Part shown: one piece after another, positions 2,283 to 22,669 of the stretch
Numbering within the stretch: position 1 is the first letter of the stretch
Layout of the letters: each line of letters starts with the position of its first letter
From: Nitrososphaerales archaeon
Lineage (GTDB): Archaea; Thermoproteota; Nitrososphaeria; Nitrososphaerales; JACAEJ01
Assembly (NCBI GenBank): GCA_049699795.1
Contig: JBNAWJ010000022.1
Location: forward strand, 1-33,093
Reading direction: 5' to 3'
DNA length: 33,093 nt
Notes under the pieces: generated by a model
What the model saw: only the letters and a program-made list of their open reading frames with translations
Told to the model about the DNA's origin: nothing
The model's database searches: none
Program-made: the position numbers and the translations under genes

Positions 2283-2288
2283 AATCTT

Positions 2289-3410: not shown

Positions 3411-3424
3411 GTCTATCTTCTTTC

Positions 3425-4402
3425 TTATGGCAGAATCCCTCCAAAAAATCCTTGCATTATTATAATCATCGGCAAAACTATTATCATAACGAATAGAAAA
3501 GTTGTCAGCTTCATTATCCTTATGGCTCTTGGTATATGATCAGGCTTTAAAGAGTTTATAGAATCACCTAGAATGTAAAAGCCAGGCTTCTCTAACTGGG
3601 CATTGAACGCTCCTGCCACTGCTGACATAGTCCAGCCTGCGTTTAGGCTTTCGGTCTTATTCTTATCTCTCTTCAATATCTCCCATGATTTTCTCCAATC
3701 TTCATGTAATAGCCATGCAGATACTACCATCAAAACGGCTGTAATTCTGGCTGGGATATAGTTTGCTAGGCTATCCATTCTTGCTGAAAACCATCCGAGA
3801 TTTACATGCTCTTTATCCTTGTAGCCAACAGTAGAGTCTAGAGTGTTTATTGCTCTATATGCAATAGCCAATGGTAAGCCTAAGATGCTGTAATAGAAGA
3901 GAGAGGAAGTTATACCATCGACAGTACTTTCTGCTACACATTCAACAGTTGCTGATATTATCTTCTGGTCATCGAACTTTGTAGGGTCTCTCCTCACGAT
4001 CCTTCTTAACATTTTCTTTGCATCTTCTATCCTGCCCTCTTCGATGGCTTTTCCTATAGGTCTTGATAATTTGTCCATGCACTTTATAGCAAATGTAGTC
4101 TTTAATAGAAGACCTGCAAATACGATGTAAATTATTATGATAATGTATTGTTTTAAAAGAATCAGCAAAATGTAAACTATCACAGCAGGAATGATGATTA
4201 CGATCAAGCCAAGGATTATGCCTTTTATCTTCTCCATCTTAGGATTACTGTCTTTAAATCTTGGCTTCAAAAACTCTATGGTTTTTCCTATCCATACTGT
4301 TGGATGAAGCTTTTCTGGAGGCTCACCAAATATCAAATCCAAAACTAACGCTAAAAATAGAATGAGTATAGATTCTAGTATGGAAGTAAGATTGAGTAGC
4401 AA
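3425..4402 (-). CDS. cbiB: Adenosylcobinamide-phosphate synthase CbiB
   Basis: LDLIFGEP...HPTVWIG, IVRRD, AESTVDG, YRAINTLDS.VGY, PARITA, SLNAGW. Confidence 0.95.
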   Translation of the reverse strand: MLLNLTSILESILILFLALVLDLIFGEPPEKLHPTVWIGKTIEFLKPRFKDSNPKMEKIKGIILGLIVIIIPAVIVYILLILLKQYIIIIIYIVFAGLLLKTTFAIKCMDKLSRPIGKAIEEGRIEDAKKMLRRIVRRDPTKFDDQKIISATVECVAESTVDGITSSLFYYSILGLPLAIAYRAINTLDSTVGYKDKEHVNLGWFSARMDSLANYIPARITAVLMVVSAWLLHEDWRKSWEILKRDKNKTESLNAGWTMSAVAGAFNAQLEKPGFYILGDSINSLKPDHIPRAIRIMKLTTFLFVMIIVLPMIIIMQGFFGGILP

Positions 4403-4407
4403 ATTTC

Positions 4408-7076: not shown

Positions 7077-7164
7077 AAAATTTGTCGCCTTTTAGTTTCA
7101 GTGCATTTTATAGAAGCTTAAAGATTGCTATGGTGCTTTTCGTCATTTCTCACCCGCTTGAGCT

Positions 7165-8445
7165 TTATACATGAATTCCTAGTTTGCATTCCAACTCTTG
7201 GAGAACAGGTAGAACTTCACCGTAGCTCTTGACAAATATTGCGCCTCTTTTCCTCAACTCTATGTAGGAGTCTTGAGCATATCCCCCTGTGAAATCCCTT
7301 TCTTGAATGGGTTTTTCATTGACTATTATCGTCGCCAATCCTTTTTCTAAAGCCATCATAGCAGCTCCAAGGTTCCTAAGATTACCACGACCGAAGGGAG
7401 CATCGCTCAATATTACTACATTTGCATCTTCTATCATTCTTAAATTAGCCTTGTGGGCTTCCTCTGTTATTGAAGAGAAAGGAGCATCACTTACTACAGG
7501 TATGCCTAGAGTGCAAGCCGCTTCGTAATCTGTATCCAATACATTAAGAACTCCTGCACTTACTTTATATCCATGCTCTAATAGCATTCTCATCAAAGAA
7601 GCTCCTGTGCCACCACCACATATTATATGGACTTTTAGGGCTCTTGGCTGAACACTCTTGAGCTCAGGTGTGCACAAAGGTACAACGTAGAGGGAATCGG
7701 TTATGGGATGCCTCTTTACTATTGCGCTTATATGGAAGGCTCTTTTGATATTCTCATCGGTTAGAACAGAGCCTATGGGCCCTATGGAAATCACCTTTCC
7801 TTCACTTAGAAGAATGGCAGAATCACAGAACAAAGATGCAAGGTTTACGTCATGTAATGCTCCTATAGTAATCAGATTTCTTTCTTTTGTAATTCTTTTG
7901 ATAAGACCAAGAACTTCAATTTGGTGCCTTATATCAAGATGGGCTACAGGCTCGTCTAAGAGTAAGACTCTTGCTTCTTGAGCCAAAGCCCTTGCAATCA
8001 GAACCTTTTGCTTCTGGCCATCACTGAGTTCATTGAACCTTCTTGTAACGAAATCCTTTATGTCGAGTATCTCCAAGGCTTTGTTAATACTACCTATGTC
8101 CTTAGAGCTAAGAGAGCCTAACCAGCCTGTCCATGGATGCCTTGCAGTGGCTATTATGTCGAATACTTCCATCTGAGGCGTCTCTATAGCATTTGTGAAG
8201 ACTACGGAGAAAATTTTTGCTAGATCACTCCCTGAAAAGATTTCTAAACTCTTGCCATCGAAGAAGATAGATCCTACCTTTGGCTTGAGCATCCCGCTCA
8301 AGCATTTCAATAATGTTGTTTTACCCGAACCATTTGGACCGAGTAAGCCCACAAAGGCTCCACTTTCAATCTTAGCCGTTACGCTCTCCAATGCCTTTAT
8401 CGATTTATAATTGAAGTTAAGCCCTTCAATTTCAATGTTCACCAT
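7165..8445 (-). CDS. btuD: Corrinoid ABC transporter ATPase with a C-terminal extra domain
   Basis: Walker A GPNGSGKT, signature LSDGQKQ, Walker B LLLDEP, LHD; ~155-aa extension beginning VHIICGGGTG. Confidence 0.85.
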   Translation of the reverse strand: MVNIEIEGLNFNYKSIKALESVTAKIESGAFVGLLGPNGSGKTTLLKCLSGMLKPKVGSIFFDGKSLEIFSGSDLAKIFSVVFTNAIETPQMEVFDIIATARHPWTGWLGSLSSKDIGSINKALEILDIKDFVTRRFNELSDGQKQKVLIARALAQEARVLLLDEPVAHLDIRHQIEVLGLIKRITKERNLITIGALHDVNLASLFCDSAILLSEGKVISIGPIGSVLTDENIKRAFHISAIVKRHPITDSLYVVPLCTPELKSVQPRALKVHIICGGGTGASLMRMLLEHGYKVSAGVLNVLDTDYEAACTLGIPVVSDAPFSSITEEAHKANLRMIEDANVVILSDAPFGRGNLRNLGAAMMALEKGLATIIVNEKPIQERDFTGGYAQDSYIELRKRGAIFVKSYGEVLPVLQELECKLGIHV

Positions 8446-8447
8446 GC

Positions 8448-9497
8448 TTAACCGCCTCTACCTCTTTTGAGCAATAAATAGATGAACAATGGTGCACCTA
8501 TCATAGATGTCACAACTCCTATTGGTAGCTCTGATGGCCTTATTATAGTTCTTGAGAGAGCATCTGACAAGGCTAGAAAAGATGCGCCTATAAGGGCTGA
8601 TGCTGGCATTAAGAATTTGTTGTCATAACCTAGAAGAAGCCTTGCTATATGAGGTATCACCAACCCTACGAACCCTATTATCCCAGCAGACGCAACAGAA
8701 ACTGAGACAAGTATGGCTACAACGATGATAAGATATTGAGTAAGGCTTTTTATGTCCACTCCGAGCTGTTTAGCATACTCTTCTCCTAGCAGTATAGCGT
8801 TAAGACTCTTTACCTTTATGAAAAGTAGAAACAAGCCCAATGGAATAATTATTGCCATTATCTGAACATGGCTCCAATGAGTGGCTGAGAAGCTTCCCAT
8901 CATCCAAGAAAAAATTATGTGAATGTCCTTCAATACTAAATATTGAAGAAAAGTTACCATAGAGGATAAGAGAAAGCTGAAGGCAAGACCTATCAACAAT
9001 ACAGATACTGGTCTTAGACCGAAGGCTTTACTTATCGTGTAAACTAGGAAGGTTGTGAAAAAGGCACCAAAGAAGGCCATGAACGTCATTGTATAGGGAC
9101 CAAGGGGCTGATAAGAAATTCCTAATGCTACTATTATTGAAACTCCAAGAAGGGCTCCACTTGCAATCCCAAGAATATATGGTTCTGCTAGTTGATTTCT
9201 GAACAAAGTTTGCAAACTTACCCCGCTCGTAGCTAGAGCAGCTCCTATGAATAACGTTGCAATAACTCTTGGAAGGCGAACATCGAATAATATCTTTGTA
9301 TACATGCTCTCACTAGGGTTAGAATTGAATAAGATTTCGATGACACTGCTTAATGGTATATCGACAGCGCCTACAGATAAGCCTAAAAGGAAAGAGAAGG
9401 CAAGCAATATAACTAAAGCTAAAAAAATGAGCTTACCTAACTTAACCCTTTTACGATGGTAATCAGATGGACTTGATTCATTATAATGAGAACTCAT
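8448..9497 (-). CDS. btuC: Corrinoid ABC transporter permease (FecCD family)
   Basis: VRLPR, QTLFRN.LAEPYILG, LGEEYAKQLGV, IGFVGLVIPH, ELPIG. Start moved to ATG 9497 to avoid overlap with the upstream gene (stop at 9499). Confidence 0.9.
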   Translation of the reverse strand: MSSHYNESSPSDYHRKRVKLGKLIFLALVILLAFSFLLGLSVGAVDIPLSSVIEILFNSNPSESMYTKILFDVRLPRVIATLFIGAALATSGVSLQTLFRNQLAEPYILGIASGALLGVSIIVALGISYQPLGPYTMTFMAFFGAFFTTFLVYTISKAFGLRPVSVLLIGLAFSFLLSSMVTFLQYLVLKDIHIIFSWMMGSFSATHWSHVQIMAIIIPLGLFLLFIKVKSLNAILLGEEYAKQLGVDIKSLTQYLIIVVAILVSVSVASAGIIGFVGLVIPHIARLLLGYDNKFLMPASALIGASFLALSDALSRTIIRPSELPIGVVTSMIGAPLFIYLLLKRGRGG

Positions 9498-9498
9498 T

Positions 9499-10260
9499 TT
9501 ATCGCTCTTTTTTTGGATAAATGCTAATAACCTCTCTCTTAGTTTTTGTTTCGCTGTGAATATAATGAACATTTTCTAAATGCCTCTTAGCTATCTCTGA
9601 TGCCTTGATCACCTCTTCTGGAGAAGGAGCTCTCCAAGGTGTATCGCTGATAGGGATAAAGCCATCTATTCTATATGGTATAGATGGATCGATGCTTGCA
9701 ATGAATCTAGCTATTCTCTCAATTTCATCGTGCTCGATTAATCCTGGGATCAAGACACTTTCTGCCATCAACTCAATTCGGCTTTTGCTTAGAAGCTTAA
9801 AATTATCTAAAACTGGTTCATTGGTCTGCCCTGTGTAGAATCGATGAATATCATTATCATAAGCCTTAATGCTTACGTAAGTGCTAGAAAGTCCTGCTTC
9901 TTCTAGTTTTTTTATGAAATTTTCATTTAAAATATAGCCATTAGTCAATAAGTGAGTTTTAACATCAAGGGCAGTAAGCATACTGATTATATCTAGTAGC
10001 TCTTTATCAAGAGTAGGCTCTCCTCCTCCTAATATAGCTCTTTTTACATCAATTTCTTTAACTATAGCTCTAAATTCATTCAAAGATAATCTTCTTAAAT
10101 CTTTAATGGCTTGAAGAGCATGCTGATCCTCATCATTAAGATGGCAGTCCCAAATTAATTGCTTTAATATGCATCCTTTACATTGAAAGTTGCATCCTTG
10201 AAAGAAGACATATATAGAGTTGTCATGAGTATGATGTGCGATATGATAAATGTTTGTCAT
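9499..10260 (-). CDS. Radical SAM protein (PFL-activase-like), function unknown
   Basis: GCNFQCKGC (CxxxCxxC), GGGEPT, TNG, SIKA; ATGA overlap with the upstream cbiZ paralogue. Confidence 0.85.
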   Translation of the reverse strand: MTNIYHIAHHTHDNSIYVFFQGCNFQCKGCILKQLIWDCHLNDEDQHALQAIKDLRRLSLNEFRAIVKEIDVKRAILGGGEPTLDKELLDIISMLTALDVKTHLLTNGYILNENFIKKLEEAGLSSTYVSIKAYDNDIHRFYTGQTNEPVLDNFKLLSKSRIELMAESVLIPGLIEHDEIERIARFIASIDPSIPYRIDGFIPISDTPWRAPSPEEVIKASEIAKRHLENVHYIHSETKTKREVISIYPKKER

Positions 10261-11018
10261 AATTCATTAACACTCTTATTATCTCTTTTGAGCTTTTCCT
10301 GTTTAAGGATAGCTTCTTTTACTGCCGAGGTTACCGCTTTGGCTATAATCTCTCCTGCCTTGGCATGTCCGCCTACATAAGTTATCTTTGGACCAAAACC
10401 TGATACCACTATAATATTATCTGTTCCTGTACCTGTGGCTTGGATTTTAGGGTTATAAGAACTCCTTATATCTAAATCTTGTAAAGAAATCGTCTTTGCT
10501 TCTGTAATAGTAATTATACTTCTTACCATGGCTCCATCTGTAAGTGAAGCGTTTGTTAAAAGGATGATATTGATTGTTCCCAAGGTTTCAAATTCACCAT
10601 CTTTCTCTATATTTTTAGCTTCATCTACACCGATTCTTTGAGCATTAGATTTTACTCCTGCAGTTACACAAGCACAAATCTTAATATCTCTATATTCTTC
10701 TGTTTTTATAGAGATATTATCCATGTCTGCACCTGTGTATAACATTGCTGTATAATCGTGCTTAACTCCTATATCAGCAAAAATCCATTCTTTATATTCT
10801 TCTTCCTTCTTATTTTTGTAAAGAGAATCATGAAGTTGTACTGGAGCATAATGATTACCAACAAATTTTACTTTTTTAAATCCTTCTAAGGTTGATAGAG
10901 CCCTTCTCATAATTCCAAGATCGACAAGAAAAGTCTTTACTTCTACATCTTGAAATCTATGATAAATTATCTCTGCCTTTGTTCCTTCTAAATTTAAGTC
11001 AATCTCTCGTCTCCTCAT
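10257..11018 (-). CDS. cbiZ: Second, stand-alone adenosylcobinamide amidohydrolase
   Basis: LYTGADM, VTAGV.SNA, GTINIILL, ITEAKT, ATGTGTD, GGH. Confidence 0.85.
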   Translation of the reverse strand: MRRREIDLNLEGTKAEIIYHRFQDVEVKTFLVDLGIMRRALSTLEGFKKVKFVGNHYAPVQLHDSLYKNKKEEEYKEWIFADIGVKHDYTAMLYTGADMDNISIKTEEYRDIKICACVTAGVKSNAQRIGVDEAKNIEKDGEFETLGTINIILLTNASLTDGAMVRSIITITEAKTISLQDLDIRSSYNPKIQATGTGTDNIIVVSGFGPKITYVGGHAKAGEIIAKAVTSAVKEAILKQEKLKRDNKSVNEL

Positions 11019-11941
11019 ATCCTTTCTCCTTTAAATAGAACCTGATCCATTGTGAAATATTGGAGATCCCAATTCTTATTGACTGATTTGGCTATTTTAT
11101 CGACCTTTCTAAAATTATCTAAAAGCTCGTCTGACCTAACCTCGACGATCTTATAATTAGGATCATAAGCTGTTTTATAGCCAGAAATCTTACTTTCAGG
11201 ATAGACAAAGAATTCAACATTATTCAGATATTTTCTAGCAATGTTAAAGGCTTTCAACATCTCTTCTTCTGTAGGTTTTCTTGAGAGCTTAACATCTAAT
11301 TGTTCAGGAGCGAATTCATATAATCTGTAGAGTATATTCTTATCAATACTACTCAAGAATTTTGCAATTTTTTCAATTTCAGGGACATCTATTATATTTG
11401 GGATAAATATCGTTCGAACATAAAAATTTAAGCCATAATCATGTAGCAACCTTACAGCTCTTAAAACATTGGCATTGCTCTTGCCAGTGTACCACTTATG
11501 AATTTCTTCAGTGTATGCCTTTAAGTCCAACTTGATATAATCCACGAGGGATTTTAACTTTTCAACTAAATCTTTATCAAGCATATGACCGTTGGTTGAT
11601 ATGCCGATTTTATTAATCCTAAGCTTTCTTAAACCTTGGATAAGATAGAGTAAATAATCTGGGTCTTTTGTTGGCTCACCACCAGTCATTTGAACTTCTT
11701 CAACTAAACCACCATAAATCAATTGGCAAGACTTGACCAATAAGTCAAGAAGACCGTTGACTGATAATTCTCTTCCTACATCTTTTTTAGCAATTGCAAA
11801 GCAACCTTTGCAATTGAAATTGCACCCAGAAAGGTTTATCTTTACTTTTTTACGAGGACTTACTTCACAAGTTAAGAAAGGCACTTTTTTAAAGATCGTC
11901 TTACTCTCTTTGATTATCTCTTTTGATAGCATTGCTGTCAT
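11015..11941 (-). CDS. Radical SAM protein (PFL-activase-like), paralogue of 9499-10260
   Basis: GCNFNCKGC, TGGEPT, STNG, DLKA, HKWYTGKSN; ATGA overlaps on both sides. Confidence 0.85.
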   Translation of the reverse strand: MTAMLSKEIIKESKTIFKKVPFLTCEVSPRKKVKINLSGCNFNCKGCFAIAKKDVGRELSVNGLLDLLVKSCQLIYGGLVEEVQMTGGEPTKDPDYLLYLIQGLRKLRINKIGISTNGHMLDKDLVEKLKSLVDYIKLDLKAYTEEIHKWYTGKSNANVLRAVRLLHDYGLNFYVRTIFIPNIIDVPEIEKIAKFLSSIDKNILYRLYEFAPEQLDVKLSRKPTEEEMLKAFNIARKYLNNVEFFVYPESKISGYKTAYDPNYKIVEVRSDELLDNFRKVDKIAKSVNKNWDLQYFTMDQVLFKGERI

Positions 11942-12732
11942 TTTATTGACCTCTTAATCTCCTTGGCTATGGATATATCATATGTTGCGAATATTATTCC
12001 ATCAGAATAGTTAGATGCAGAAACCATGGCTTTTATGATATTTTTAACAAATGGTCTTGGATGGCCTGCATAAAGTTCAATATAAAGCGGTACTTTAATT
12101 CGTCTACGGAAGTATCGCGCCAAGATCTCTATCCAGTACGTTGTCGAATAAGTTTTATCATAAAGCGGGATTACTAAAAAGTCAGCATACTTAGCAAGTG
12201 CAGTAAAATCTATACCAAACCTTTCTTTGGATGAGCACGGATCTGGGGGTAGTGTTATAGAGAAATTTACTTTCACTAGCTTTGAAATCTCTTCTACAAA
12301 TTCGTTAATTATATTCGACTTCCACCTAGCCCATTTTAGCTTACTCTCTTTCCACATTTTTGTGCATCGTTGGCATGTACAATATTCTTCTTCTGGAAAA
12401 TGAACACAGTCAAGATGTATGCCTGCTATGTTCACTTTTGACGCTTCATCGATCAGATCAAGAATATATTTCACATAATCTTCATTTGTGGGGCATATCC
12501 AATCCCAAAGAAAATTATGCCTTTTATTTCCTCTAGTCGCTTTATCTTGCTTAGATAAAGCGACCCACTCAGGCTTCTCACGAGCTGTCTTATTATCACC
12601 AAAACAGCTAACTATATTATACATTCGCTCTGCTGCCTTATTTATTCTACCGCTTACAGGTTTGATATGGTAAAAAGTCAAGTCGAAATCTTCTACAGGC
12701 TCTGGTTTGTCTAATACGACCCCTAGTCTCAT
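11938..12732 (-). CDS. Putative glycoside-hydrolase-like TIM-barrel protein (GHL10/DUF4015-like) with CxCxxC
   Basis: KPEW...WICP.NEDY.KYILDLIDE...AGIHLDCVHF...YCTCQRC...FGIDF...D...IPLY. Start set at ATG 12732, just past the btuF stop, with a purine-rich leader. Confidence 0.55.
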   Translation of the reverse strand: MRLGVVLDKPEPVEDFDLTFYHIKPVSGRINKAAERMYNIVSCFGDNKTAREKPEWVALSKQDKATRGNKRHNFLWDWICPTNEDYVKYILDLIDEASKVNIAGIHLDCVHFPEEEYCTCQRCTKMWKESKLKWARWKSNIINEFVEEISKLVKVNFSITLPPDPCSSKERFGIDFTALAKYADFLVIPLYDKTYSTTYWIEILARYFRRRIKVPLYIELYAGHPRPFVKNIIKAMVSASNYSDGIIFATYDISIAKEIKRSIK

Positions 12733-12748
12733 AATACTTCCCTGACTA

Positions 12749-13783
12749 TCAGATTTCGATTCCATGAATTAGCTCAGCAAAGATTTCTATAGCCTCAGCA
12801 GTTCTCGGACCTGGCTGTATAAAGAATTTTGGTACTGCAAAGACTCTTCCTTCTTTTACTGCTTTGATTTCACTCCAAGATGGGAAGAGGCTTAAGAGAT
12901 CATTAACATTCGATATTCCTGGATGTCCTTCACTGAAAGCGATAACATCAGGATTTTGAGCCAAGACTTCTTCAGGGCTTACTGTAGGCCAAGCAATATT
13001 TACGCTCCCAAAGATATTTACTCCCCCAGCTGCTTCGATAAGTGCGTTGATAAAGCTAGGTCCTCCAGCTGACATGAGAGGATCGTGCCAAGACATCCAA
13101 AAAACCTTAGGTTTTGGTAAGTTAGCTACTGCATTAGATACTTTGGTGATATTTTGTTTCATTTCACTTACAAGATTTTCTGCACTATCTTTTGCTCCTG
13201 TTAATTTGCCAATTAACGTTATAGCACTATATATGCTATCAAGACTATTTCCATAATCTACACCCACTACAGGATAGCCTAAATTTTTTAACTTTTCCAC
13301 ACCCTCAGGTCTCATAAAGGTTGGTACTAGGATCAAGTCAGGATTTGCCGCAACAACTTTCTCAACTTCAGGATCTACGATGCTATTAAAAACGGTAAGA
13401 TTGCCTGAATTTTTTCTATCTACCATCTCTGGAGGCCATTCACACCATTTAGTAACTGCAACAACTTTATCGCCTAAACCTATAGTGAATAACGTTTCAG
13501 TTATGCTAGGAGCAAAGGAGGCTATCCTTTGAGGAGGAACTCTGACTATAGTTCTATCAAAACTTAATATTTCTGGAACTTCGATGCCTTGTGGAACAAT
13601 GAGTATTGTGCTACCATAAACATCCTTGAAGACTTCGACACCGAAAATAACATTAAGATTAGCAGTAAGTTTGTCTATCTTCTGGTTTAGTTGAGATATT
13701 GCGTAGAAGTTATACGCTGTCACAGAACCTGTTAGTATGATCAAAACAACTAAAACCGCTAATCCAGTTTTTCCTTTTTGCAT
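12749..13783 (-). CDS. btuF: Corrinoid ABC transporter substrate-binding protein
   Basis: N-terminal membrane anchor; PQRIASFAPSITETLFTIGLGDKVVAV, AGGVNIF, EEVLAQNPDVI, AVKEGRV, PGPR. Confidence 0.88.
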   Translation of the reverse strand: MQKGKTGLAVLVVLIILTGSVTAYNFYAISQLNQKIDKLTANLNVIFGVEVFKDVYGSTILIVPQGIEVPEILSFDRTIVRVPPQRIASFAPSITETLFTIGLGDKVVAVTKWCEWPPEMVDRKNSGNLTVFNSIVDPEVEKVVAANPDLILVPTFMRPEGVEKLKNLGYPVVGVDYGNSLDSIYSAITLIGKLTGAKDSAENLVSEMKQNITKVSNAVANLPKPKVFWMSWHDPLMSAGGPSFINALIEAAGGVNIFGSVNIAWPTVSPEEVLAQNPDVIAFSEGHPGISNVNDLLSLFPSWSEIKAVKEGRVFAVPKFFIQPGPRTAEAIEIFAELIHGIEI

Positions 13784-13815
13784 GGCTGGATAATCCTACC
13801 AGCCAATTATTAAAG
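13783..13815 (-). promoter_or_regulatory. btuF promoter: TATA box plus a GC-rich inverted repeat (candidate operator)
   Basis: Minus-strand CTTTAATAA at 13807-13815, ~27 bp before the ATG. TGGCTGG (13783-13789) N9 CCAGCCA (13799-13805). Confidence 0.5.
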
Positions 13816-13827
13816 TTTTTGGTTTAT

Positions 13828-14877
13828 TTATGAATCACTTACACGATCTAAAATACAGACTTTATCCTCAGCAAAGTAGTCTCCAAACATCCAATAGGCT
13901 CTGGCTCTACAGCCTCCACAAACTTCCTTGAAAGAGCATTTGCTACATTTTCCTTTAACACGATCGACATCACACAAACCTTGTAAGAATCTATCTTTCT
14001 TTAACCTTCTCCAAAGATCCTTTAGACCATTTTTCATTACATTGCCCAGTGAGTAAGGTATGTAGGGACATGGTCTTACAGAGCCATCTTCCATCACGTG
14101 CATGGTTTGGGATAATGAACATAGCCTACCTGGAACTTCAAAACCTTTACTAGACATTAGAGCAGAGTAAGACGGCTCATAAACAGATACCTTGCTAAAT
14201 CCTTTATAACCTATAGCATTCATGGGCAATGCATGCCATTCATCAAAAAGCCTGGTCATCAAATTTTTGTAGCTATGAAGCTTTGGTAGTATCTCTGATT
14301 TGGCTCTGCCCATAGGAATTATCGCTAAAGCATCGCAAGTTAATCCTTGACTTTCAGCAAAGCGTATTACCCCCTCAACATCGTCTATATTTACGCTAGT
14401 AACAACTGCTCCAACACTGACCGATAAACCCTCCTTCAGTAAAGCATTCAAAGCCATCATTTTCTTAGAGAGAGAGGATGGAATCCTTGTAAACTTCACA
14501 TGCGTTTCTTCAACTAACGTGGGGAGATTTATTGCTATGGATGCCTTGCTTTCCTTAAAGGATTCTATATGATCAGGAGTCATTAGCGTAGCGTTAGTTG
14601 CTATAACAGGAGTCATTCCTAAATCTCTTGCAAATCTTGCTAGCTCTAGAATATCATTCCTAAGCAAAGGCTCACCTCCAGTGAAAACGAAACTCTTAGT
14701 GCCAAGATCAGAAGCTTGTTTTATCAAATTCTTTGCCTGTTTATTTGTCAACGTCTTGCGTGGGTTATAGGCCGCATAGCAATGAATACACTTTAAGTTA
14801 CACTTATAAGTACACTGCCAAGCTATGTGCACTAGCTCACTAGAACTCAAAAATATCACTATAATGGAAACTTTCAT
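13828..14877 (-). CDS. Radical SAM/SPASM protein (AhbC/AhbD/NirJ-like)
   Basis: WQCTYKCNLKCIHC, FTGGEPLLR, DGSVRPCP, CSKCSFKEVCGGCRARAY. Start is uncertain (ATG 14877 or TTG 14850). Confidence 0.8.
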   Translation of the reverse strand: MKVSIIVIFLSSSELVHIAWQCTYKCNLKCIHCYAAYNPRKTLTNKQAKNLIKQASDLGTKSFVFTGGEPLLRNDILELARFARDLGMTPVIATNATLMTPDHIESFKESKASIAINLPTLVEETHVKFTRIPSSLSKKMMALNALLKEGLSVSVGAVVTSVNIDDVEGVIRFAESQGLTCDALAIIPMGRAKSEILPKLHSYKNLMTRLFDEWHALPMNAIGYKGFSKVSVYEPSYSALMSSKGFEVPGRLCSLSQTMHVMEDGSVRPCPYIPYSLGNVMKNGLKDLWRRLKKDRFLQGLCDVDRVKGKCSKCSFKEVCGGCRARAYWMFGDYFAEDKVCILDRVSDS

Positions 14878-14927
14878 AACGCTAAAATACTTTTTAATAT
14901 AGCATCTTAAATATGGAAAGTGCATCT
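14858..14927 (+). repeat. 70-bp direct repeat, copy 1
   Basis: ACTATAATGGAAACTTTCATAACGCTAAAATACTTTTTAATATAGCATCTTAAATATGGAAAGTGCATCT, identical to 15922-15991. Confidence 0.95.
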
Positions 14928-14951
14928 CTGTGTTATTTCAACAATACAATT

Positions 14952-14977
14952 TTTTTCAGCAGAGCTCTGCTGAAAAA
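14952..14977. repeat. Perfect 26-bp palindrome
   Basis: TTTTTCAGCAGAGCTCTGCTGAAAAA equals its own reverse complement. Confidence 0.9.
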
Positions 14978-15159
14978 TCCTGTCAAAGACCATTGTAAGA
15001 ATTAAGATCATACTAACCCGCACAGAACCAACGTAAAACCGCTATCATTAACCACTGTAAAGCATCCTTTCTGCACGTATACTTTTAAAATAATGATGAA
15101 GTTAATACTAATAATATATATTAAAGTAATGTTTAAATGTAAATCCTATATTAATATTT

Positions 15160-15396
15160 TTGGTGATGTTGTTGCGTACTATCACTGTAAAAGTTGATGA
15201 AGAATTAAAAAGGAAGATGAAACTCGTTAAGGTCAATTGGTCAGAATATATCAGGGAAAGTATTCAGCGGAGAGTAGAATTGGAAGATAGAAAAAGTGCA
15301 GCAGAGAAGCTTCTAGAAGGATTAAAAGAAGGGAAATGCGTTGCTCCTAAAGGATTTATAAATAAAACCATAAGGGAGACGAGGGAAAACCGTTGA
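15160..15396 (+). CDS. vapB: VapB-type ribbon-helix-helix antitoxin
   Basis: TITVKVDEELKRKM...VNWSEYIRESI is typical of archaeal RHH antitoxins; 4-bp overlap with the PIN gene. True start may be 15166 or 15172. Confidence 0.8.
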   Translation: MVMLLRTITVKVDEELKRKMKLVKVNWSEYIRESIQRRVELEDRKSAAEKLLEGLKEGKCVAPKGFINKTIRETRENR

Positions 15397-15830
15397 CTGT
15401 TTATGTGGTGGATGCCTCTGTTGCATCTAGATTCATATTGGTTGAAGATTTATCTGACAAAGCAAAATTGGTTCTGGAAGACTTTCTTGAAGGAAAACTC
15501 GATTTAAAAGCGCCAAAACTATTAGTTTATGAGGTGGGAAACACCTTATGGAAAGCTGTTAAACAAGGTTTCATAAACCTAGATGAGGCTTTAAAAAATT
15601 TTTCGCATTTTATAAAGCTTAGAATAAATTCAATCGAATTAGATGGAAAAGAACTTGAAGATGTTCTATGGTGGAGTGTTAAAAACCAGACATGCTATTA
15701 TGATAGCGTGTATGTAAAATCATCGAAAAAGATTGGGGCACCCCTCCTAACCGCCGATGACACATTATGTGAGAAAGCTCGTAAAGAAATTCTAACCCTA
15801 CATTTAAAAGACTACCAGAAACAGGTTTAA
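15393..15830 (+). CDS. vapC: VapC PIN-domain toxin
   Basis: VVDASV, APKLLVYEVGNTLWK, YYDSVY, LLTAD: the acidic PIN residues are present. Confidence 0.9.
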   Translation: MTVYVVDASVASRFILVEDLSDKAKLVLEDFLEGKLDLKAPKLLVYEVGNTLWKAVKQGFINLDEALKNFSHFIKLRINSIELDGKELEDVLWWSVKNQTCYYDSVYVKSSKKIGAPLLTADDTLCEKARKEILTLHLKDYQKQV

Positions 15831-15921
15831 CTCAAGAACAATTTTAGCCTATTTAGTTTTATTTTATCAGGAAGTTCAATCTTATCATAGATACCTGTAT
15901 AGAATACTGACAAACTCAAAA

Positions 15922-15991
15922 ACTATAATGGAAACTTTCATAACGCTAAAATACTTTTTAATATAGCATCTTAAATATGGAAAGTGCATCT
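15922..15991 (+). repeat. 70-bp direct repeat, copy 2
   Basis: Identical to 14858-14927; includes the first five codons (MESAS) of the 15977 gene. Confidence 0.95.
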
Positions 15992-18070
15992 AGAAGGGTA
16001 AGGAGCATATATAATGCCATAGCCTCCCCAACCAGATTAGAGATTCTTAGAATTCTTAACGCTAAAGGACCTTTAAGCTACTCTGACCTTAAAACGCTTG
16101 CTGGCTTTAAGTCTAAGAAAGAATCAGGAAAGTTTGCCTACCATCTGAGGAAACTTGTGAAGCAGGCATTGGTCTCTTTGGACAGGGGTGAGAGGAAGTA
16201 CAGCATATCAAGCCTAGGTAGATTAGTGCTAAATCTTACAAGGCAGGTGGAGGAGCGGTCCATGCTGGAGAGTGGCAAGTTCTATGTTAGGACGTCAAGG
16301 CATACCATGGAAGAATTCAACCCAGATAGAATACTTCAATCTCTTATAAGAGAAGCCGGGATGCCTGTAGAACTTGCAAAAAGAATATCTGATGAGGCAG
16401 AAGCAAGGATATCCAAATTTCAAACAGCTTACTTGACAGCTCCTTTGATAAGAGAAATGGTCAATGCTTTACTCATAGAGCATGGTTACGAAGAGTATAG
16501 GCACAAATTGACAAGATTGGGCTTACCAGTATTTGATGTAACAGAATTGGTGAATAGAGCCAGCAGAGCAAAAGAAGGGTTGTGCACAGTCTTGGCACAA
16601 ACAGCCGAATCAGTCTTTTCAGAGTATTTGCTTCTTACTCAACTTCCCAGAGATGTATCTGATGCTCATCTTTCTGGGGATATCCATCTATCTGACGTAG
16701 GTTTTTGGGGCTTGATGCCGGATACTCTCTTCATGGACTTATCATCACTAAACAACAATGGTATTAAATTAGGAAGATTGTCCATGATGCCAAAACTAGG
16801 CCCTCCTGATAGCCTCGAGGAAGCAATGAACGAATTGTCGATCCTAACTTCTTTTTTGAGCTTAGAACTGGCATCTGAAATCACTTATGAAAATTTTCCA
16901 AAATATATTGGAGATTATGCTAAAGGGAAGAGCCATAAAGAGCTCAAGGAAGCCATTCTAAATGCCCTTCTATTAATTTCGTCAAATCTGGCAATTTCAT
17001 ACAACAAGCCCAAGATAGCGATAAACATTGACCCTTACTCTAATAATTTGGAAGAAAAACTGAACAATAAAATAATGCTGGCTACCCTTGATGCTTACAA
17101 AGATTATTCTGAAAGAATTCCTTTGCCACAGATAGGATTAGTCATTCTTTTGGATAAAGTTTCAGATAAAGATTTGACAAAGCGTATAGCATCCATCGTA
17201 AATTCAGGAGGGTGCATTTCAATATCAACTCAACGTAACCTAATTCGATCTTATAGTGGTTTGAAGAAAGTTTCTTCAGATGCAGAGCATGAAATCGATA
17301 ACTTCAGCCTAATTCACTCTTTATCTCTGAACCTTCCAAGGCTTTCTTATGAATCGAATAAAGATGAAACTTACTTTAGGGCGAAGATGGCCATGCTTAT
17401 TCAACTATCTGTAAACGCCCTGGCTAAAAGAAGAAAGATGATAGGGGAAGTGATCAACAAAGGACTATTGCCCATACTGGCTCAGAATCAGAATATTATA
17501 TCTACTGATTTTATGCCTGCTGCAATCAACCTTATTGGATTAGATGAAGCCATGATGAATCTAGTAGATGAAAAGACAAAGCAGCAAGAAAGGAGGGCGA
17601 TAATTGAAAAGGTGATAGGGACTGCTACAAAATTTGTAGGTGAAAGAGTTGTTAAGCCTGAAGAGAGCACGGGAATAGCCATCTTACAGAGCGATAGTGC
17701 AGAACGCTTTTACAATCTAGATTTAGAAAAGTACGGCAAGTCTGTTGTAACCAGTAAAGATAGAAGGAACGCCTATTCACAAGTTCCATGGATTCAAAGT
17801 ACAGACCTTCATAATGAGAATATAGTAGATGAATTGAATTACTTATCCAAAAACTTGAGCAGTGGCTTTTCCACCATCATAAATATTCCCACAAAGGCTG
17901 ATTTAGATTCTGTCGAAAAAACGATTTCAGAAGCCATAGGAAAGCTTGATTACTTCAAGCTTAGCAAGAAGATTACCATATGTAAGAATTGTGGAGCAAA
18001 ATTTTCGACAGAAGTTGAGAGATGCAAAGTATGCAAGTCTACAGCCTTGGCTTACCACTCTACAGCATAG
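15977..18070 (+). CDS. ArsR-type HTH + ATP-cone + degenerate class III ribonucleotide reductase (NrdD-like) fusion; probable regulator
   Basis: IASPTRLEILRIL...GKFAYHLRKL (wHTH); VRTSRHTMEEFNPDRI...LIREMVNALL (ATP cone); AHLSGDIH, LNLPRL, LIGLDEA, CKNC..CKVC (NrdD). No RxxGY glycyl-radical loop. Confidence 0.8.
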   Translation: MESASRRVRSIYNAIASPTRLEILRILNAKGPLSYSDLKTLAGFKSKKESGKFAYHLRKLVKQALVSLDRGERKYSISSLGRLVLNLTRQVEERSMLESGKFYVRTSRHTMEEFNPDRILQSLIREAGMPVELAKRISDEAEARISKFQTAYLTAPLIREMVNALLIEHGYEEYRHKLTRLGLPVFDVTELVNRASRAKEGLCTVLAQTAESVFSEYLLLTQLPRDVSDAHLSGDIHLSDVGFWGLMPDTLFMDLSSLNNNGIKLGRLSMMPKLGPPDSLEEAMNELSILTSFLSLELASEITYENFPKYIGDYAKGKSHKELKEAILNALLLISSNLAISYNKPKIAINIDPYSNNLEEKLNNKIMLATLDAYKDYSERIPLPQIGLVILLDKVSDKDLTKRIASIVNSGGCISISTQRNLIRSYSGLKKVSSDAEHEIDNFSLIHSLSLNLPRLSYESNKDETYFRAKMAMLIQLSVNALAKRRKMIGEVINKGLLPILAQNQNIISTDFMPAAINLIGLDEAMMNLVDEKTKQQERRAIIEKVIGTATKFVGERVVKPEESTGIAILQSDSAERFYNLDLEKYGKSVVTSKDRRNAYSQVPWIQSTDLHNENIVDELNYLSKNLSSGFSTIINIPTKADLDSVEKTISEAIGKLDYFKLSKKITICKNCGAKFSTEVERCKVCKSTALAYHSTA

Positions 18071-18254
18071 ATATTGTAGATTGAGTTAGACGAATAATGA
18101 ATAGTAATTTCAAGTCAAGTTAATTTTACTATATCATCTCATTAACGGTGTTTTAGAAGAAAAAAAGGTTAGATGCGTAATTCTAGTCAATATTTCTTAA
18201 TCTATCATTAAAAATCATAGCCTGATTCATATTACATGTTATCAGTGGGATTAA

Positions 18255-21200
18255 TTGGTTTTAGCTACAGAAAAAGAAATTATTGAACATAAATTTTCAC
18301 CTAACGCTTTGAAGGTATTGGAGAAAAGGTACCTAAGAAAAGACGAAAACGGAAAGATCATAGAGACTCCTGATCAGATGTTCCGTAGAGTTGCCAAAGC
18401 TATAGCAGAGGTGGATGCTCTCTATGATCCAAACGCAGATGTTCAAAAGACTGAAGAAGAATTCTATAGGGTTATGAGCGAATTAGAATTTTTGCCAAAT
18501 TCTCCAACTTTGATGAACGCTGGGACAGAATTGGGCCAGCTTTCTGCATGTTTTGTATTACCAGTAGAAGACTCTATAGATAGCATTTTTGATGCTGTCA
18601 AGGCTACTGCCTTAATTCATAAATGTCTAACAAAAGATACACTAGTGTTTACAAATCCAGGAATTAAACCTATAGTAGAGATTAGAGTTGGTGATCGAGT
18701 GGCTACGGATAGTGGCTACCAGCGTGTTTTTGATACTCACTATGTAGGTATTAAAGAGGCACTTCGCGTTAAAACTTTACATGGCTATGAAATAACCGGC
18801 TCAAGAGAACATAAATTGAGGGTAATAGATGAGAATGGAAATTATGTTTGGAAAGAAATAGGCGATTTAAAGATAGGCGACTGGCTGGCTATACAATTAT
18901 TCGATCGAAAGGATGGCGATAATACCTTACCTAAGTTCGATTACCATCCAAAGCTTTATAATCGAACTTCTTTTAAAGCAAGGATAAATGAGCTTCCACA
19001 AATCTTAACGACAGATTTGGCTTATCTTTTTGGTGCTTTTTTGGGAGATGGTAGTTTTCACAAAAAAGACTATGGAAAAATAAGATTTACGATCGGCGAA
19101 GATAAGAGAGAATTAGTAGAGAAAATAAGCAGAATAATAAAAGAAATCTTTAGCATAACACCAAAAATAAGAAAAGATAAAGGTGCGTATGAGATAAGTT
19201 TTCAAAGCGTTCAGATCAGAGAGTGGTTTGAGTTTTTAGGTATTAAAAAATCCAGTGCTCGAAAGATTCGTATACCTTCTTTTATATTCAAGGCAAGTGG
19301 TGATAGAATCGGAGCTTTTCTGCAAGGTTTATTTGATACAGATGGTTGTATAAATGCTAAAGGTTACATTTCTCTTACATCATCATCTGAAAGAGGCATT
19401 AAGGAAATTCAGACATTACTTTTATTATTAGGCATACCAACAATTAAACGTGAGCTCAAAAGTGTAAAAAGTTGGCAGATAACGATAACAACATTACGAG
19501 GGTTAGAAAACTTTGCTAAAAAAATTTCTTTCTCAGTCAAACAAAAAGCTGAGAGATTAGCTAATATTGATTTTAACAAACTGTTCAGAAAAGATTACCT
19601 ACCTAATCAATATAAGGTTCTTTCAAAATATTTACATGGCAAACTTAGAAAGAAATATGATAGGATTGTTAGAGGAGAGCGACAACTTAACATAAGGCAA
19701 GCTAAAGAAATACTTTCTTACATCAACATACCAGAATTGGCAAATATGATGGCACGCAATCAATTCTACACCCAGGTTTCTGAGATAGAAAATTTAGGAC
19801 CTCAAAAAATGTACGATCTCACAGTTCCAGTATCAAACTGTTATATTGCAAACGGTTTTGTGTCACATAATTCTGGCGGTGGGACTGGTTTTTCTTTTTC
19901 AAAAATAAGGCCAAAGAACGATGCAGTAAAGTCTACAGGTGGAATAGCATCAGGTCCTGTCTCATTTATGAGGGTATTTGATGTAGCGACTGAAGTAATA
20001 AAGCAAGGAGGTAGGAGAAGAGGAGCAAATATGGGCATATTAAGAGTAGATCATCCAGACATAATCGAATTCATAACATCGAAGGAAGAGAGCATCGCCT
20101 TCAATAACTTCAACATATCAGTAGCTTTAACAGACAAGTTCATGAGAGCTTTGGAGAAAGAAGAAGATTATGAGCTAATAAACCCACGCACAAAACAGAT
20201 TGTTAAAAAGCTACCAGCCAAGGATATCTTCGAATTGATCGTGACCATGGCTTGGAAGAATGGTGAACCTGGAATAATATTCATAGATAGAATTAATGAA
20301 TTTAATCCTACTCCTCATGTTGGAGAGATAGAGAGCACGAACCCATGCGGAGAGCAGCCACTATTACCATATGAATCTTGTAATCTTGGTTCTATAAATC
20401 TGTCAAAGATGGTAAAAGATGGCAAAGTGGATTATGATAAGTTGATAAAAACTGTTAGAATAGCTGTTCATTTTCTTGATAATGTGATAGATGTAAATAA
20501 GTATCCATTAACTCAAATAGAAAGCATTACAAAAGCTAATAGGAAAATAGGCTTAGGAGTAATGGGCTTTGCAGACATGCTCATAAAGCTTGGCATACCA
20601 TATGACTCTGAAGAAGCAATAGATATTGCTGAGAAAGTTATGAAGACCATCAAAGAAGAAGCGAGAAAGGCATCTTCTGAGCTTGCAGAGGCAAGAGGGT
20701 GCTTCCCGAATTTTAAGGGGAGCATTTACGATTTTCCAGGAGGAATTAAGTTAAGGAATGCTTCTTTAACAACTATTGCTCCAACTGGCTCAATTTCTAT
20801 AATAGCTGGCTGTTCTAGTGGCATAGAACCTCTTTTCGCAATTTGCTACACTCGCAATGTTCTTGAAGGCCAAAGGCTTATAGAAATAAACCCATTGTTT
20901 GAGAAAATAGCTAAGATGGAAGGTTTCTACAGTGAAGAGTTGATGAGAGAGATAGCTGAGAAAGGGTCTTTAAGAGATATTAATGGTATACCTGAGCATA
21001 TAAAAAGAATCTTCGTTACTGCTCATGATATAACTCCTGAGTGGCACGTAAGGATGCAGGCAGCCTTTCAAAAATACACGGATAATGCAGTGTCTAAGAC
21101 CGTCAACTTCCCTAACAGCGCCAAAATCGATGATGTGAGAAAAGTCTACATGCTGGCCTACAGATTAGGTTGCAAAGGCGTTACTGTTTATAGAGATGCC

Positions 21201-21719
21201 AGCAGAGAGGAGCAAGTTCTAGAGACCAAGAAGACTGAAATGGAGAGGAGATCCCAGAAGACCAAAAAGGAAACGCCGGAGAAGGCTTATGGAGTGCGTT
21301 TAAGAAAGAAGACAGGATGTGGCAATATTTACACAAAGGTCTTCAGCAATGAACACAACGAGCCTGTTGAAGTCTTCATTACTTTGGGCAAAGCTGGAGG
21401 TTGCGCTGCTGCTTTCACAGAGGGATTAGCGAGAGCTTGTTCACTAGCTTTGAAGTATGGTGCAAGTTTAAAGGAGTTGGAGGATGAACTCATGGGGATA
21501 AGTTGCCATAAGCAAGAGGGTATAGGTCAAAACAGAGTCCTCTCATGCATAGACGCTGTAGCCAAATCAATACAAGAAATGTTCGGGCAGAAAACTGATC
21601 AAAAAATAGATGATAAGAAATCTAATAGCTTAGGTGCATGCCCAGTTTGTGGGAGTCAAGTGATATACACTGAAGGCTGCCTAAGATGCATATCTTGTAA
21701 CTTCTCTCAATGTGAATGA
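18255..21719 (+). CDS. nrdJ: Adenosylcobalamin-dependent (class II) ribonucleotide reductase with one intein
   Basis: [58 protein letters not shown]-terminal TSCPD-like domain and CPVC..CLRCISC. 738 aa after intein removal. Confidence 0.95.
18624..19871 (+). mobile_element. Intein with LAGLIDADG homing endonuclease (416 aa)
   Basis: ALIHK|CLTKDT ... YDLTV...[10 protein letters not shown]|SGGGTG; block B TGSREH; motifs [10 protein letters not shown] and [10 protein letters not shown]. Confidence 0.95.
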
Positions 21720-21721
21720 AT

Positions 21722-22669
21722 TTAGAATAAAGCATAAGGATCATGATTAAGAATAGATGCTAATAAAGCTCCTCTTATAACCTTCCCATAATATATCTGA
21801 AGGAAATACTTTGCATTTGGCATTTTATCGACTTCAGGCTTTATTTCTCCTACTCTTGGGAGAGGATGCATAACTATACAATCTTCTTTACCGCTTTTTA
21901 ATAAATCAGCATCTATCACATAAGAGCCCTTTACTTTTTCATACTCATGAGGGTCTGGGAATCTCTCTCTTTGAATTCTAGTTATATAAATTACATCTAA
22001 ATTTTTTATTATTTCTTTTAAATCTTCATGCTCTGAAAACTTGATTTTATCACTAATATTGAATAAAGCCTCATCTCTAACTTTTAGCTGTGGTGGTGAT
22101 ACCAAAAATATTCTGGGGCTATAATTCGATAATGCATAGATAAGAGAGTAAACAGTTCTCCCATACTTCAAATCTCCAACTATGGCTATATTCAATCCAT
22201 TTATCCTTCCCTTTACCTTCATTATTGTGTAAAGGTCTAGCATGGCTTGAGTTGGATGCTCTTCAGTGCCACTACCGGCGTTTATTACTGGCTTTGAAGC
22301 AATCTCTGCCGCGAAACGGTTAGCTCCTTCCATAGGATGCCTTAGAACTATGGCATCTACATAACTCTCGACAGTCCTTACAGTATCTGCAAGGTTCTCT
22401 CCCTTTTCAACAGAAGACATGCTAGGATGTGCAAACCCTAAAACACTTCCCCCTATAGATAGCATGGCAGCCTCAAAGCTCAACCTAGTCCTTGTGCTAG
22501 GTTCAAAGAACAATAGTCCGAGAATCCTTCCTTTCGCTAACTCTTTCTTCTTTTCATAATCTAATTTTTCAATCTTATCGGCTATTGAGAAAAGATACTC
22601 AAGTTCAGAGCGAGTAAATTCTTTTATTGAGATTACATCCCGATTGTAGAAGGGATTCTTCATGATCAT
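21722..22669 (-). CDS. pyrB: Aspartate carbamoyltransferase catalytic subunit
   Basis: FFEPSTRTRLSF, KGE, HPTQ, GDLKYGRTV.SL, TRIQRER, MHPLPR. Confidence 0.98.
   Translation of the reverse strand: MIMKNPFYNRDVISIKEFTRSELEYLFSIADKIEKLDYEKKKELAKGRILGLLFFEPSTRTRLSFEAAMLSIGGSVLGFAHPSMSSVEKGENLADTVRTVESYVDAIVLRHPMEGANRFAAEIASKPVINAGSGTEEHPTQAMLDLYTIMKVKGRINGLNIAIVGDLKYGRTVYSLIYALSNYSPRIFLVSPPQLKVRDEALFNISDKIKFSEHEDLKEIIKNLDVIYITRIQRERFPDPHEYEKVKGSYVIDADLLKSGKEDCIVMHPLPRVGEIKPEVDKMPNAKYFLQIYYGKVIRGALLASILNHDPYALF

Follow-up and report, generated by a model that had tools for sequence, protein, structure and literature searches.

The genes for ribonucleotide reductase (RNR) in bacteria are under the control of NrdR, an RNR-specific repressor of about 150 residues which, in the passages that PMC9110341, PMC12176259 and PMC12051234 devote to it, is described as a Zn ribbon joined to an ATP-cone, and which according to the first of these sources occurs in most bacteria and in only some archaea. 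In the literature searched, no description was found of how archaea control the expression of their RNR genes. Ammonia-oxidising archaea are globally abundant and depend on a B12-dependent RNR. Here we analyse a stretch of DNA from a Nitrososphaerales archaeon, called the window below (33,093 nucleotides, contig JBNAWJ010000022.1 of assembly GCA_049699795.1), in which a gene for a protein of 697 residues stands directly upstream of nrdJ, the gene for a class II, B12-dependent RNR. The protein combines an N-terminal winged helix-turn-helix (wHTH), an ATP-cone-like domain and a barrel resembling NrdD, the catalytic subunit of the class III, anaerobic RNR. It is probably a transcription factor dedicated to RNR genes that arose from a duplicate of NrdD without catalysis by the addition of a winged helix, and what it most likely controls is the transcription of the working reductase gene next door. 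A literature search, which included PMC9669993 and did not cover subscription journals and supplements, returned no description of this candidate regulator. The features on which the argument rests are the following.

15977..18070, + strand: candidate RNR-gene regulator, 697 residues, with wHTH, cone-like domain and dead NrdD-like barrel (open reading frame list, Pfam domains).
16007..16231, + strand: winged helix-turn-helix, residues 11-85 (Pfam DUF7347, E 1.6e-10; HTH_20, E 1.1e-7).
16283..16498, + strand: ATP-cone-like domain, residues 103-174 (Pfam ATP-cone, 33.7 bits, cutoff 25.8).
16586..18043, + strand: NrdD-like alpha/beta barrel without catalytic residues, residues 204-689 (Pfam NRDD, E 7e-33).
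17258..17263, + strand: G428-L429, remnant of the GC(R) finger loop, with Leu for the thiyl-radical Cys (hmmalign against P0244).
17981..18034, + strand: C-terminal Zn ribbon CxxC-N10-CxxC, formed by the invariant cysteines C669, C672, C683 and C686.
18255..21719, + strand: nrdJ, class II B12-dependent RNR with a LAGLIDADG intein (NCBIfam PRK08665, 1158 bits, over cutoff).

Loss of catalytic residues from the NrdD-like barrel

The preliminary description of this locus, made from the sequence alone, read a wHTH, an ATP-cone and an NrdD-like barrel and quoted motifs of the last (AHLSGDIH, LNLPRL, IGLDEA and a C-terminal CxxC..CxxC), and all of these are found in the open reading frame at 15977..18070. 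Both Pfam matches of the wHTH lie above cutoff, HTH_20 with 32.1 bits against 27; DUF7347 is the best match, and NCBIfam HTH_metalloreg reaches 27.4 against 55. Within the putative recognition helix lies an invariant block, S50 G51 F53 A54 Y55 H56 L57 R58.

The NRDD match covers positions 11-530 of the 562 in the Pfam profile, and the missing last 32 positions are those that we take, from the general architecture of NrdD, to be the glycyl-radical loop. The protein ends 11 residues past C686, close to the ten or so first estimated, without such a loop. Behind the stop codon TAG (18068-18070) each of the three frames runs into stops, and the glycyl-radical motif R[VIT][TSVC]G[YF] occurs in none of the six frames of the whole window. 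From this follows that the missing tail is not a sequencing artefact: a tail hidden behind a frameshift is ruled out, and the RxxGY loop is absent as originally reported.

The cysteines of the radical chemistry are gone as well. When a genuine NrdD from Methanocaldococcus (P0244) is placed on the family hidden Markov model with hmmalign, its 'AMGCRTR' lies over 'YSGLKKV' of the candidate regulator, so that the segment YSGLKK had been correctly picked by eye as the place of the lost thiyl-radical Cys. G428, invariant in the family alignment (A1), matches the Gly of GCR, and L429 sits where the thiyl-radical Cys stood. A profile search of the PDB aligns 'SPMGC(290)RSF' of the T4 enzyme 3-4 residues off and again puts Cys290 on a column without Cys. 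In place of 'RPVC', which holds the second active-site Cys of genuine enzymes (region of T4 Cys79), the hmmalign alignment shows 'MPDT'. The NLPR motif with Asn452 and the four Zn-ribbon cysteines are invariant in the family, the cysteines aligning to the Zn site of the T. maritima and T4 enzymes. All NCBIfam NrdD equivalogs stay below cutoff (TIGR02487, for instance, with 101 bits against 326). The genome that contains the window (1.29 Mb, 90.9% complete) has no second NRDD match over cutoff and no NrdG activase model over cutoff, the best TIGR02491 match scoring 29.5 against 126 and the best TIGR02495 (NrdG2) match 81 bits against 131. Read from these alignments, the protein is a catalytically dead copy of NrdD, and the original view of it as a pseudoenzyme is upheld by the loss of all three radical-chemistry residues, the lack of an activase over cutoff and the weak conservation of the barrel.

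How weak this conservation is can be seen when the domains are compared. Mean pairwise identity is 69% in the wHTH, where 37 of 88 columns are at least 90% identical, and 65% in the cone (31 of 83 columns), and it falls to 24-42% in the segments of the barrel, each with 5 to 13 columns at that level. Selection, as far as it is reflected in these columns, acts on the N-terminal domains.

The predicted fold of the barrel is the ten-stranded alpha/beta barrel of class III RNRs with its Zn ribbon. The AlphaFold2 model, which started from alignment A1 (its first sequence, P0001, departs from the window protein at three positions), has a mean predicted local distance difference test (pLDDT) score of 82.2 and a predicted template modelling (pTM) score of 0.74, with low confidence confined to the linkers at about 90-110 and 179-183 and to the loop 434-438. 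Foldseek places class III RNRs on top (9dca_A, E 9e-21; template modelling score on the target 0.67 for 4coj_A and 0.69 for 1hk8), with the glycyl-radical enzyme PflD (1e-7) and class I RNRs far behind. When residues 200-697 are modelled as a homodimer, the interface score ipSAE is 0.64 (0.64, 0.61 and 0.64 in separate runs) and 0.01 for the best of three controls, at a mark that is passed by 20 of 30 proteins whose solved structure is a pair and by 1 of 23 whose solved structure is a single chain. Between runs at least 80% of the contacts agree, with a partner pLDDT of at least 85, and the predicted contacts are made by helices 281-297 and 325-342 together with 200-214 and 492-499. This pass may reflect likeness to solved NrdD dimers, and is then to be read as likeness rather than proof.

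Distribution and the link to reductase genes

A word-indexed homologue search scored 8000 candidates, of which 4832 have E values up to 0.001. The best 120 of these 4832 are all 658-713 residues long with the architecture of cone and NRDD; their named sources are Nitrososphaerales, Thaumarchaeota or Methylarchaceae, and they are annotated either as 'anaerobic ribonucleoside-triphosphate reductase' or as 'ArsR family / HTH domain-containing', which agrees with the early guess that similar fusions in related archaea pass for anaerobic RNRs. A scan of one genome per species confirmed 572 of 599 matched stretches, so that relatives are encoded in at least 572 genomes at species level. Among sampled Nitrososphaeria the gene is present in 177 of 201 genomes, a tally that includes one unpublished genome (G132) counted nowhere else, and in 159 of the 161 that are at least 90% complete; it occurs in nearly every ammonia-oxidising archaeon sampled. 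Three whole families of the sample lack it (f8, 0 of 14; f13, 0 of 2; f14, 0 of 1). Flags of one internal TGA raised in this survey came, in 3 of 3 genes inspected, from the regular stop codon that closes the gene where the match ends. In one locus of 71% identity (L095:5001-7092) the reading frame closes at 5864 and the tblastn match runs on to 7092, which could be a frameshift or an assembly error. Seven shorter relatives of 565-590 residues (P0214, P0219, P0220, P0222, P0228, P0230 and P0236), one cluster of which is named Aigarchaeota, have helix-turn-helix (HTH) and cone and lack the NLPR region and the Zn ribbon; from their sequences they look like a further stage of barrel erosion.

In the 80 best loci, which served for the surveys of synteny and sites and whose specific names are all Nitrososphaerota (two are called 'bacterium' and several only 'archaeon'), tblastn finds nrdJ directly downstream of the candidate regulator gene in 72, and in the other eight at most 640 nt of contig are left. 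The synteny with nrdJ that the preliminary description singled out for inspection is therefore interrupted at contig ends only. The two genes lie on the same strand in 69 loci and are convergent in the three most distant ones, of about 40% identity, two of which are labelled Conexivisphaerales.

A corresponding arrangement is found outside this class. Sixteen neighbourhoods from other Thermoproteota were inspected, seven picked for two adjacent matches and nine from the top of the list, and 15 of them are informative. Downstream of the HTH-type gene they have:

L126-L129, L131, L132 and L136 (7): full-length nrdD (NRDD positions 1-562, 488-537 bits).
L130 (1): a degenerate NrdD-like gene.
L133 and L135 (2): a class II RNR gene.
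L137, L139 and L140 (3): pyrB or pyrI.
L138 and L141 (2): unrelated genes.
L134 (1): none, the contig ends.

Among the nine unbiased picks an RNR gene adjoins the HTH-type gene in 3 of 8 informative loci. The enzyme-type neighbours keep 'RPFC' (7 of 8), 'SQCCR' (6 of 8) and 'SR(I/V)TGYYQ' (7 of 8). The HTH-type copies have no Cys in the second-Cys column (15 of 15), have kept the thiyl Cys in a single case (L136, 'TGCR') and either end past the Zn ribbon or bear a degenerate tail, 'ASGY' in L135 being ambiguous. Longer HTH-bearing relatives from outside the class, 740-800 residues in length and with one cluster named Bathyarchaeota, end in a degenerate Gly-loop tail, GRSSAIYIPLTLW, where genuine enzymes have SRITGYLQNISNW. 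A dead HTH paralogue beside a live RNR is accordingly the general pattern across the loci of the phylum, of which the window shows the aerobic version with nrdJ. In L130 the enzyme-type neighbour (3177-5081, - strand; NRDD 255 bits) is itself degenerate and ends in 'SRSIAFY' instead of SRITGYY, so that genomes of this kind may, judging from the tail, hold two dead NrdD copies.

The spacers between the candidate regulator gene and nrdJ contain candidate operators. In the window the relevant elements are these.

18114..18141, + strand: candidate operator E1, a GTCAA-N6-TTTAC dyad followed by CTCA, GTCAAGTTAATTTTACTATATCATCTCA (profile match 18101-18148).
18186..18190, + strand: E2, a proximal GTCAA half-site that starts 21 nt before the nrdJ TATA-like box (word survey).
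18207..18215, + strand: putative TATA-like box of nrdJ, ATTAAAAAT, 48 nt before the start codon (sequence).
15955..15965, + strand: TATA-like box of the candidate regulator gene, TTTTTAATATA, ending 12 nt before the ATG (sequence).

The k-mers enriched in these spacers have a common GTCAA/TTGAC core and combine to a composite element, (TTGAC-N5-)GTCAA-N5-(G/T)TTCAC-N7-9-CGTCTCAT, with half-site-like words spaced by roughly a helical turn; certain lineages add an outer inverted repeat around it, ATGAGACG...CGTCTCAT. Of 69 spacers upstream of nrdJ, 46 contain the core dyad GTCAA-N6-TTNAC, which occurs there with 50 sites in 16,054 bp (3.11 per kb), compared with 31 sites in 723,213 bp elsewhere (0.043 per kb), which is an enrichment of about 70-fold as counted on the related genomes that also yielded the motif. 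The pairing TTGAC-N5-GTCAA is found 14 times in the spacers and never outside them. In the genome of the window the strict E1 pattern has a single occurrence, and a scan (nhmmer) with a profile built from 35 aligned elements ranks E1 first (E 0.034), the next match having an E value of at least 2. Out of the 46 loci left out of the profile, 17 match at E up to 1, all between the stop of the candidate regulator gene and the start of nrdJ and all on the + strand. All three convergent loci have a perfect GTCAA-N6-TTGAC on the far side, upstream of nrdJ, and from this follows that the element goes with the nrdJ promoter and not with the 3' end of the candidate regulator gene. The nrdJ box of the window agrees in position with the AGATATATA-like boxes of its relatives, and GT(C/T)AA starts 18-32 nt before the box in 21 of 34 loci that have one (shuffles: mean 1.2, maximum 4).

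The same five-letter word recurs at the candidate regulator's own promoter. Within 100 nt upstream of the start, GTCAA or TTGAC is found in 70 of 79 candidate regulator genes (shuffles: mean 13.2, maximum 23) and in 48 of 302 controls taken from the same loci; at 20-29 nt upstream, where the word comes right behind a TTAAATACA-like box in the candidate regulator genes, the figures are 39 of 79 and 7 of 302. The spacing of 12 nt between box and ATG would fit a leaderless transcript. Other k-mers enriched upstream of this gene, of the CCGGATTTGAACCGG type, look like the T-arm of a neighbouring tRNA gene and were discarded as operators; upstream of the gene in L092-L094 there is a tRNA-like stretch ending ...GGTTCAAATCC...CCA, probably their source.

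Outside Nitrososphaeria the GTCAA-N6-TTNAC dyad is found in 0 of the 9 spacers examined; GTCAA words occur in four of them, all from one lineage, and in three as a direct repeat.

The rest of the neighbourhood in the window consists of the following.

889-14925, - strand: cobalamin salvage and transport cluster (Pfam/NCBIfam).
15160-15830, + strand: vapB/vapC (PIN) toxin-antitoxin pair, between the cobalamin cluster and the candidate regulator gene.
21722-22669, - strand: pyrB, followed by A/V-ATPase genes.
32124-33005, - strand: TnpB-family RNA-guided endonuclease gene (NCBIfam, 125.5 bits, cutoff 100).

The candidate regulator gene was described as lying directly upstream of nrdJ and diverging from the B12 operon; the first is right, and the second must be modified, as vapBC at 15160-15830 intervenes. 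None of the 80 related loci gives a match to the vapC query. The cobalamin cluster includes a radical S-adenosylmethionine (SAM) protein (11015-11941, - strand) to which two models give their highest score in the genome, NrdG2 with 80 bits (cutoff 131) and the YjjW-type glycyl-radical activase with 83 bits (cutoff 250), and a second such radical SAM protein is encoded at 9499-10260; the upstream neighbours that were queried, radical SAM-SPASM and btuF, recur in the closest relatives only. The intein and LAGLIDADG Pfam domains of the window's nrdJ lie between about residues 124 and 540; in the close relatives L017-L019 nrdJ spans about 2.2 kb, which suggests that it has no intein, and in L016 the form is long. 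The pyrB gene follows nrdJ in 17 of the 80 Nitrososphaerota loci and is convergent to the RNR gene or beside the HTH-type gene in L126, L130-L132, L136, L137 and L139, a recurring order that may, on gene order, point to a wider neighbourhood of nucleotide metabolism. The genome has a second class II RNR with an N-terminal ATP-cone (contig C51, L003:1-1791, - strand).

Proposed mechanism, putative signal input and competing explanations

To see how such a protein could work, consider a duplicate of nrdD that loses catalysis and gains an N-terminal winged helix. It would act as a dimer through the old NrdD interface, and its flexibly tethered wHTH domains would read GTCAA/TTGAC half-sites about one helical turn apart; with flexible linkers, the dimer could set its two wHTH on inverted half-sites of either polarity. 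Since E1 and E2 lie upstream of the putative core promoter of nrdJ, activation or recruitment would fit better than simple occlusion. In most relatives a half-site lies between the TATA box of the candidate regulator gene and its start codon, from which autorepression is predicted. The signal would enter through the highly conserved cone-like domain, perhaps with a contribution from the dead barrel.

Ligand sensing is the weakest step of this scheme. The domain is homologous to canonical cones (hhalign probability 89%, E 2e-6, against nine nrdJ cones) and scores 36.8 bits in a genome-wide search with the ATP-cone profile, which has only two matches, the other being the N-terminus of the second class II RNR; no NrdR candidate appears in this search of a genome 90.9% complete. 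The K-R pair of the canonical hairpin, present in 9 of the 9 canonical cones, aligns to T106-S107, and the family has T/S-S/T there. The parts of PMC12662201 that treat nucleotide binding report that K9/R10 of the E. coli and K19/R20 of the S. thermophilus RNR cones contact nucleotide phosphates and that Gln114 of the T4 enzyme is a conserved contact of the specificity site; the Gln114 column is variable and hydrophobic in the family, in an alignment of low confidence. The preliminary description had the protein reading deoxyribonucleoside triphosphate (dNTP) pools, possibly through retained specificity sites, and with the K-R pair replaced and Gln114 falling on such a column neither claim is supported as stated. 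A nucleotide ligand is plausible by descent, and residue conservation gives it no support.

It is for these reasons that one alternative, though unlikely, deserves attention: the protein may regulate RNR genes without sensing ATP or dATP, with a cone and barrel that bind another signal (another nucleotide or cofactor, or redox state or a metal sensed through the Zn ribbon) or only oligomerise. The family-wide replacement of K-R, the lack of a match to any solved cone by sequence, the specificity-site Gln that is not conserved and a barrel conserved at 24-42% only are what this alternative would lead one to expect. It is opposed by the score of the domain above the Pfam ATP-cone cutoff and its alignment to canonical cones, by the last cone helix, in which the basic and aromatic residues Y174, R175, H176 and R180 are invariant or nearly so, and by the 37 of 90 cone columns that are invariant among 20 sequences, from whole proteins 40-97% identical to the window's, which argue for a precise function such as ligand binding.

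The reading of the protein as a regulator of RNR genes, whatever its ligand, has to be weighed against a number of observations that count against it. The domain architecture, the lost catalytic residues, the fold, the distribution, the synteny and the conserved sites with their positions are observations; that the protein binds the GTCAA sites, dimerises and senses a ligand, and in which direction it regulates, we infer, and that the binding is predicted counts against the reading. E1 of the window is weak (14.5 bits, E 0.034), with a degenerate left arm; 31 of the 80 loci, marine Nitrosopumilales among them, have no profile match; and the promoter of the second RNR (C51) has no element by regular expression or profile. 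The own-promoter GTCAA/TTGAC site is missing in the window, in L017 and L019 and in six more loci. The dyad was derived and counted on the same related genomes, and the counts overstate independence. The placement of E1 and E2 upstream of the core promoter rests on TATA-like words. As to the signal, the loss of K-R, the variable Gln114 column and the failure of the cone to find a solved ATP-cone by sequence at E up to 10 belong here too, as do the 8 of 66 neighbouring nrdJ genes that have kept a cone of their own (the other 58 lack one).

What remains of the regulator as first conceived, a nucleotide-sensing functional analogue of NrdR, is its dead barrel, its conserved wHTH, its synteny with RNR genes and the sites at the nrdJ promoter; its dNTP input and its specificity sites find no support as first stated, and neither do the supposed operators at the B12 operon (14844-14927 and 13780-13830), as the window has a single copy of the core dyad, at 18114. 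A wider scenario has, in our estimate, somewhat less than an even chance: an ancient, phylum-wide module, a tandem duplicate of nrdD that died, received a winged helix and became dedicated to its RNR neighbour, would have survived the exchange of class III for B12-dependent class II RNR when Nitrososphaeria became aerobic, would read the nucleotide pool with its barrel and remodelled cone in a manner unlike NrdR, and would activate nrdJ from upstream dyads and repress its own promoter.

An improbable alternative is that the GTCAA elements serve another factor, a promoter or an RNA leader, while the protein binds DNA elsewhere or has another role with nucleic acids, its adjacency to RNR genes being a relic of tandem duplication. 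The link between protein and sites and the position of the transcription start site are indeed inferred, the 31 loci without a profile match leave room for such a view, and tandem duplication alone accounts for adjacency to nrdD. It does not sit well with an adjacency that outlasts the change of partner from class III to class II at about 40% protein identity, or with the same 5-mer at the promoters of nrdJ and of the candidate regulator gene and not at those of 302 control genes. Nor does an RNA leader find support: a scan of 14800-18400 for known RNA families gave no Rfam match, only two sub-threshold chance hits, and sequence differences in the left arm of the dyad are not matched by compensating ones, a test that is partial as selection fixed the central GTCAA.

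Very improbable is a partnership at the level of protein, in which the candidate regulator supplies a cone in trans to a cone-less NrdJ or forms a mixed dimer, with the wHTH as a secondary trait. Pfam finds no ATP-cone in the N-terminus of the window's nrdJ, which is in this respect like the 58 neighbouring genes counted above, the modelled barrel keeps a confident NrdD-like self-interface, and class I RNR cones supplied by another subunit are known, as a passage in PMC5794259 relates. Set against this, no part of the protein is conserved as strongly as the wHTH, conserved DNA sites exist, and the nrdD neighbours in anaerobic relatives have 110-135 residues before the barrel, room for a cone, though Pfam reports none at E 1e-5.

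That the protein is still an enzyme, a reductase or another radical enzyme with a different radical source, is hardly credible: Asn452 in NLPR and the Zn ribbon are kept and the best NrdG2-like radical SAM protein is encoded 4 kb upstream (11015-11941), but the Gly loop is gone, both cysteines are replaced, that radical SAM protein belongs to the cobalamin cluster, the upstream neighbours queried (radical SAM-SPASM and btuF) recur in the closest relatives only, the barrel is poorly conserved and the hosts are mostly aerobic ammonia oxidisers.

Relation to known systems

If the candidate regulator controls RNR genes as proposed, archaea would have in it their first RNR-specific regulator. It would likewise be the first transcription factor derived from the catalytic subunit of an RNR, and would show clearly how such a subunit can be reused as sensor and scaffold in transcriptional control. 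It would also give direct access to the control of growth and of DNA-precursor supply in ammonia-oxidising archaea, and would correct a widespread misannotation, 'anaerobic ribonucleoside-triphosphate reductase' in aerobes. The candidate operators make the proposal testable with simple binding assays.

As far as the sources cited at the outset describe NrdR, it and the candidate regulator are alike in that a DNA-binding module is joined to a domain of the ATP-cone type and tied genetically to RNR genes, and in that repeated sites in helical phase lie upstream of RNR genes. NrdR is further characterised by nucleotide-dependent binding to paired boxes upstream of RNR operons; for the candidate regulator there are conserved paired sites upstream of nrdJ, to which such binding would be a prediction. 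They differ in nearly everything else: the DNA module here is an N-terminal wHTH, and the sole Zn ribbon is the C-terminal one of NrdD; the protein has 697 residues with a whole dead NrdD barrel and no homology to NrdR outside the cone; the cone is without the canonical K-R; and the sites are GTCAA dyads, not NrdR boxes, lying at nrdJ upstream of the TATA-like box.

With NrdD itself (T4, 1h78/1hk8; T. maritima, 4coi/4coj; P. copri, 8p23; S. thermophilus, 9d3x) the candidate regulator has in common the barrel fold, NLPR with its Asn, the C-terminal Zn ribbon, an N-terminal cone as in those NrdDs that bear one and a predicted dimer through equivalent helices. Unlike NrdD, it lacks the Gly loop, the thiyl Cys and the second Cys, has an extra wHTH and stays below the NCBIfam NrdD cutoffs. 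The HTH-type paralogues of other Thermoproteota, with names such as Bathyarchaeota and Aigarchaeota, have the same order of wHTH, cone and NrdD-like barrel, have lost the cysteines and have an RNR gene as their immediate downstream neighbour, in many cases followed by pyrB; many of them, in contrast to the candidate regulator, keep a vestige of the Gly-loop tail of about 35 residues, with the Gly mostly substituted, and their partner is usually an intact nrdD rather than nrdJ. The closest known system by function is NrdR, and the candidate regulator departs from the architecture of NrdR and from the catalytic features of NrdD while it keeps the NrdD fold.

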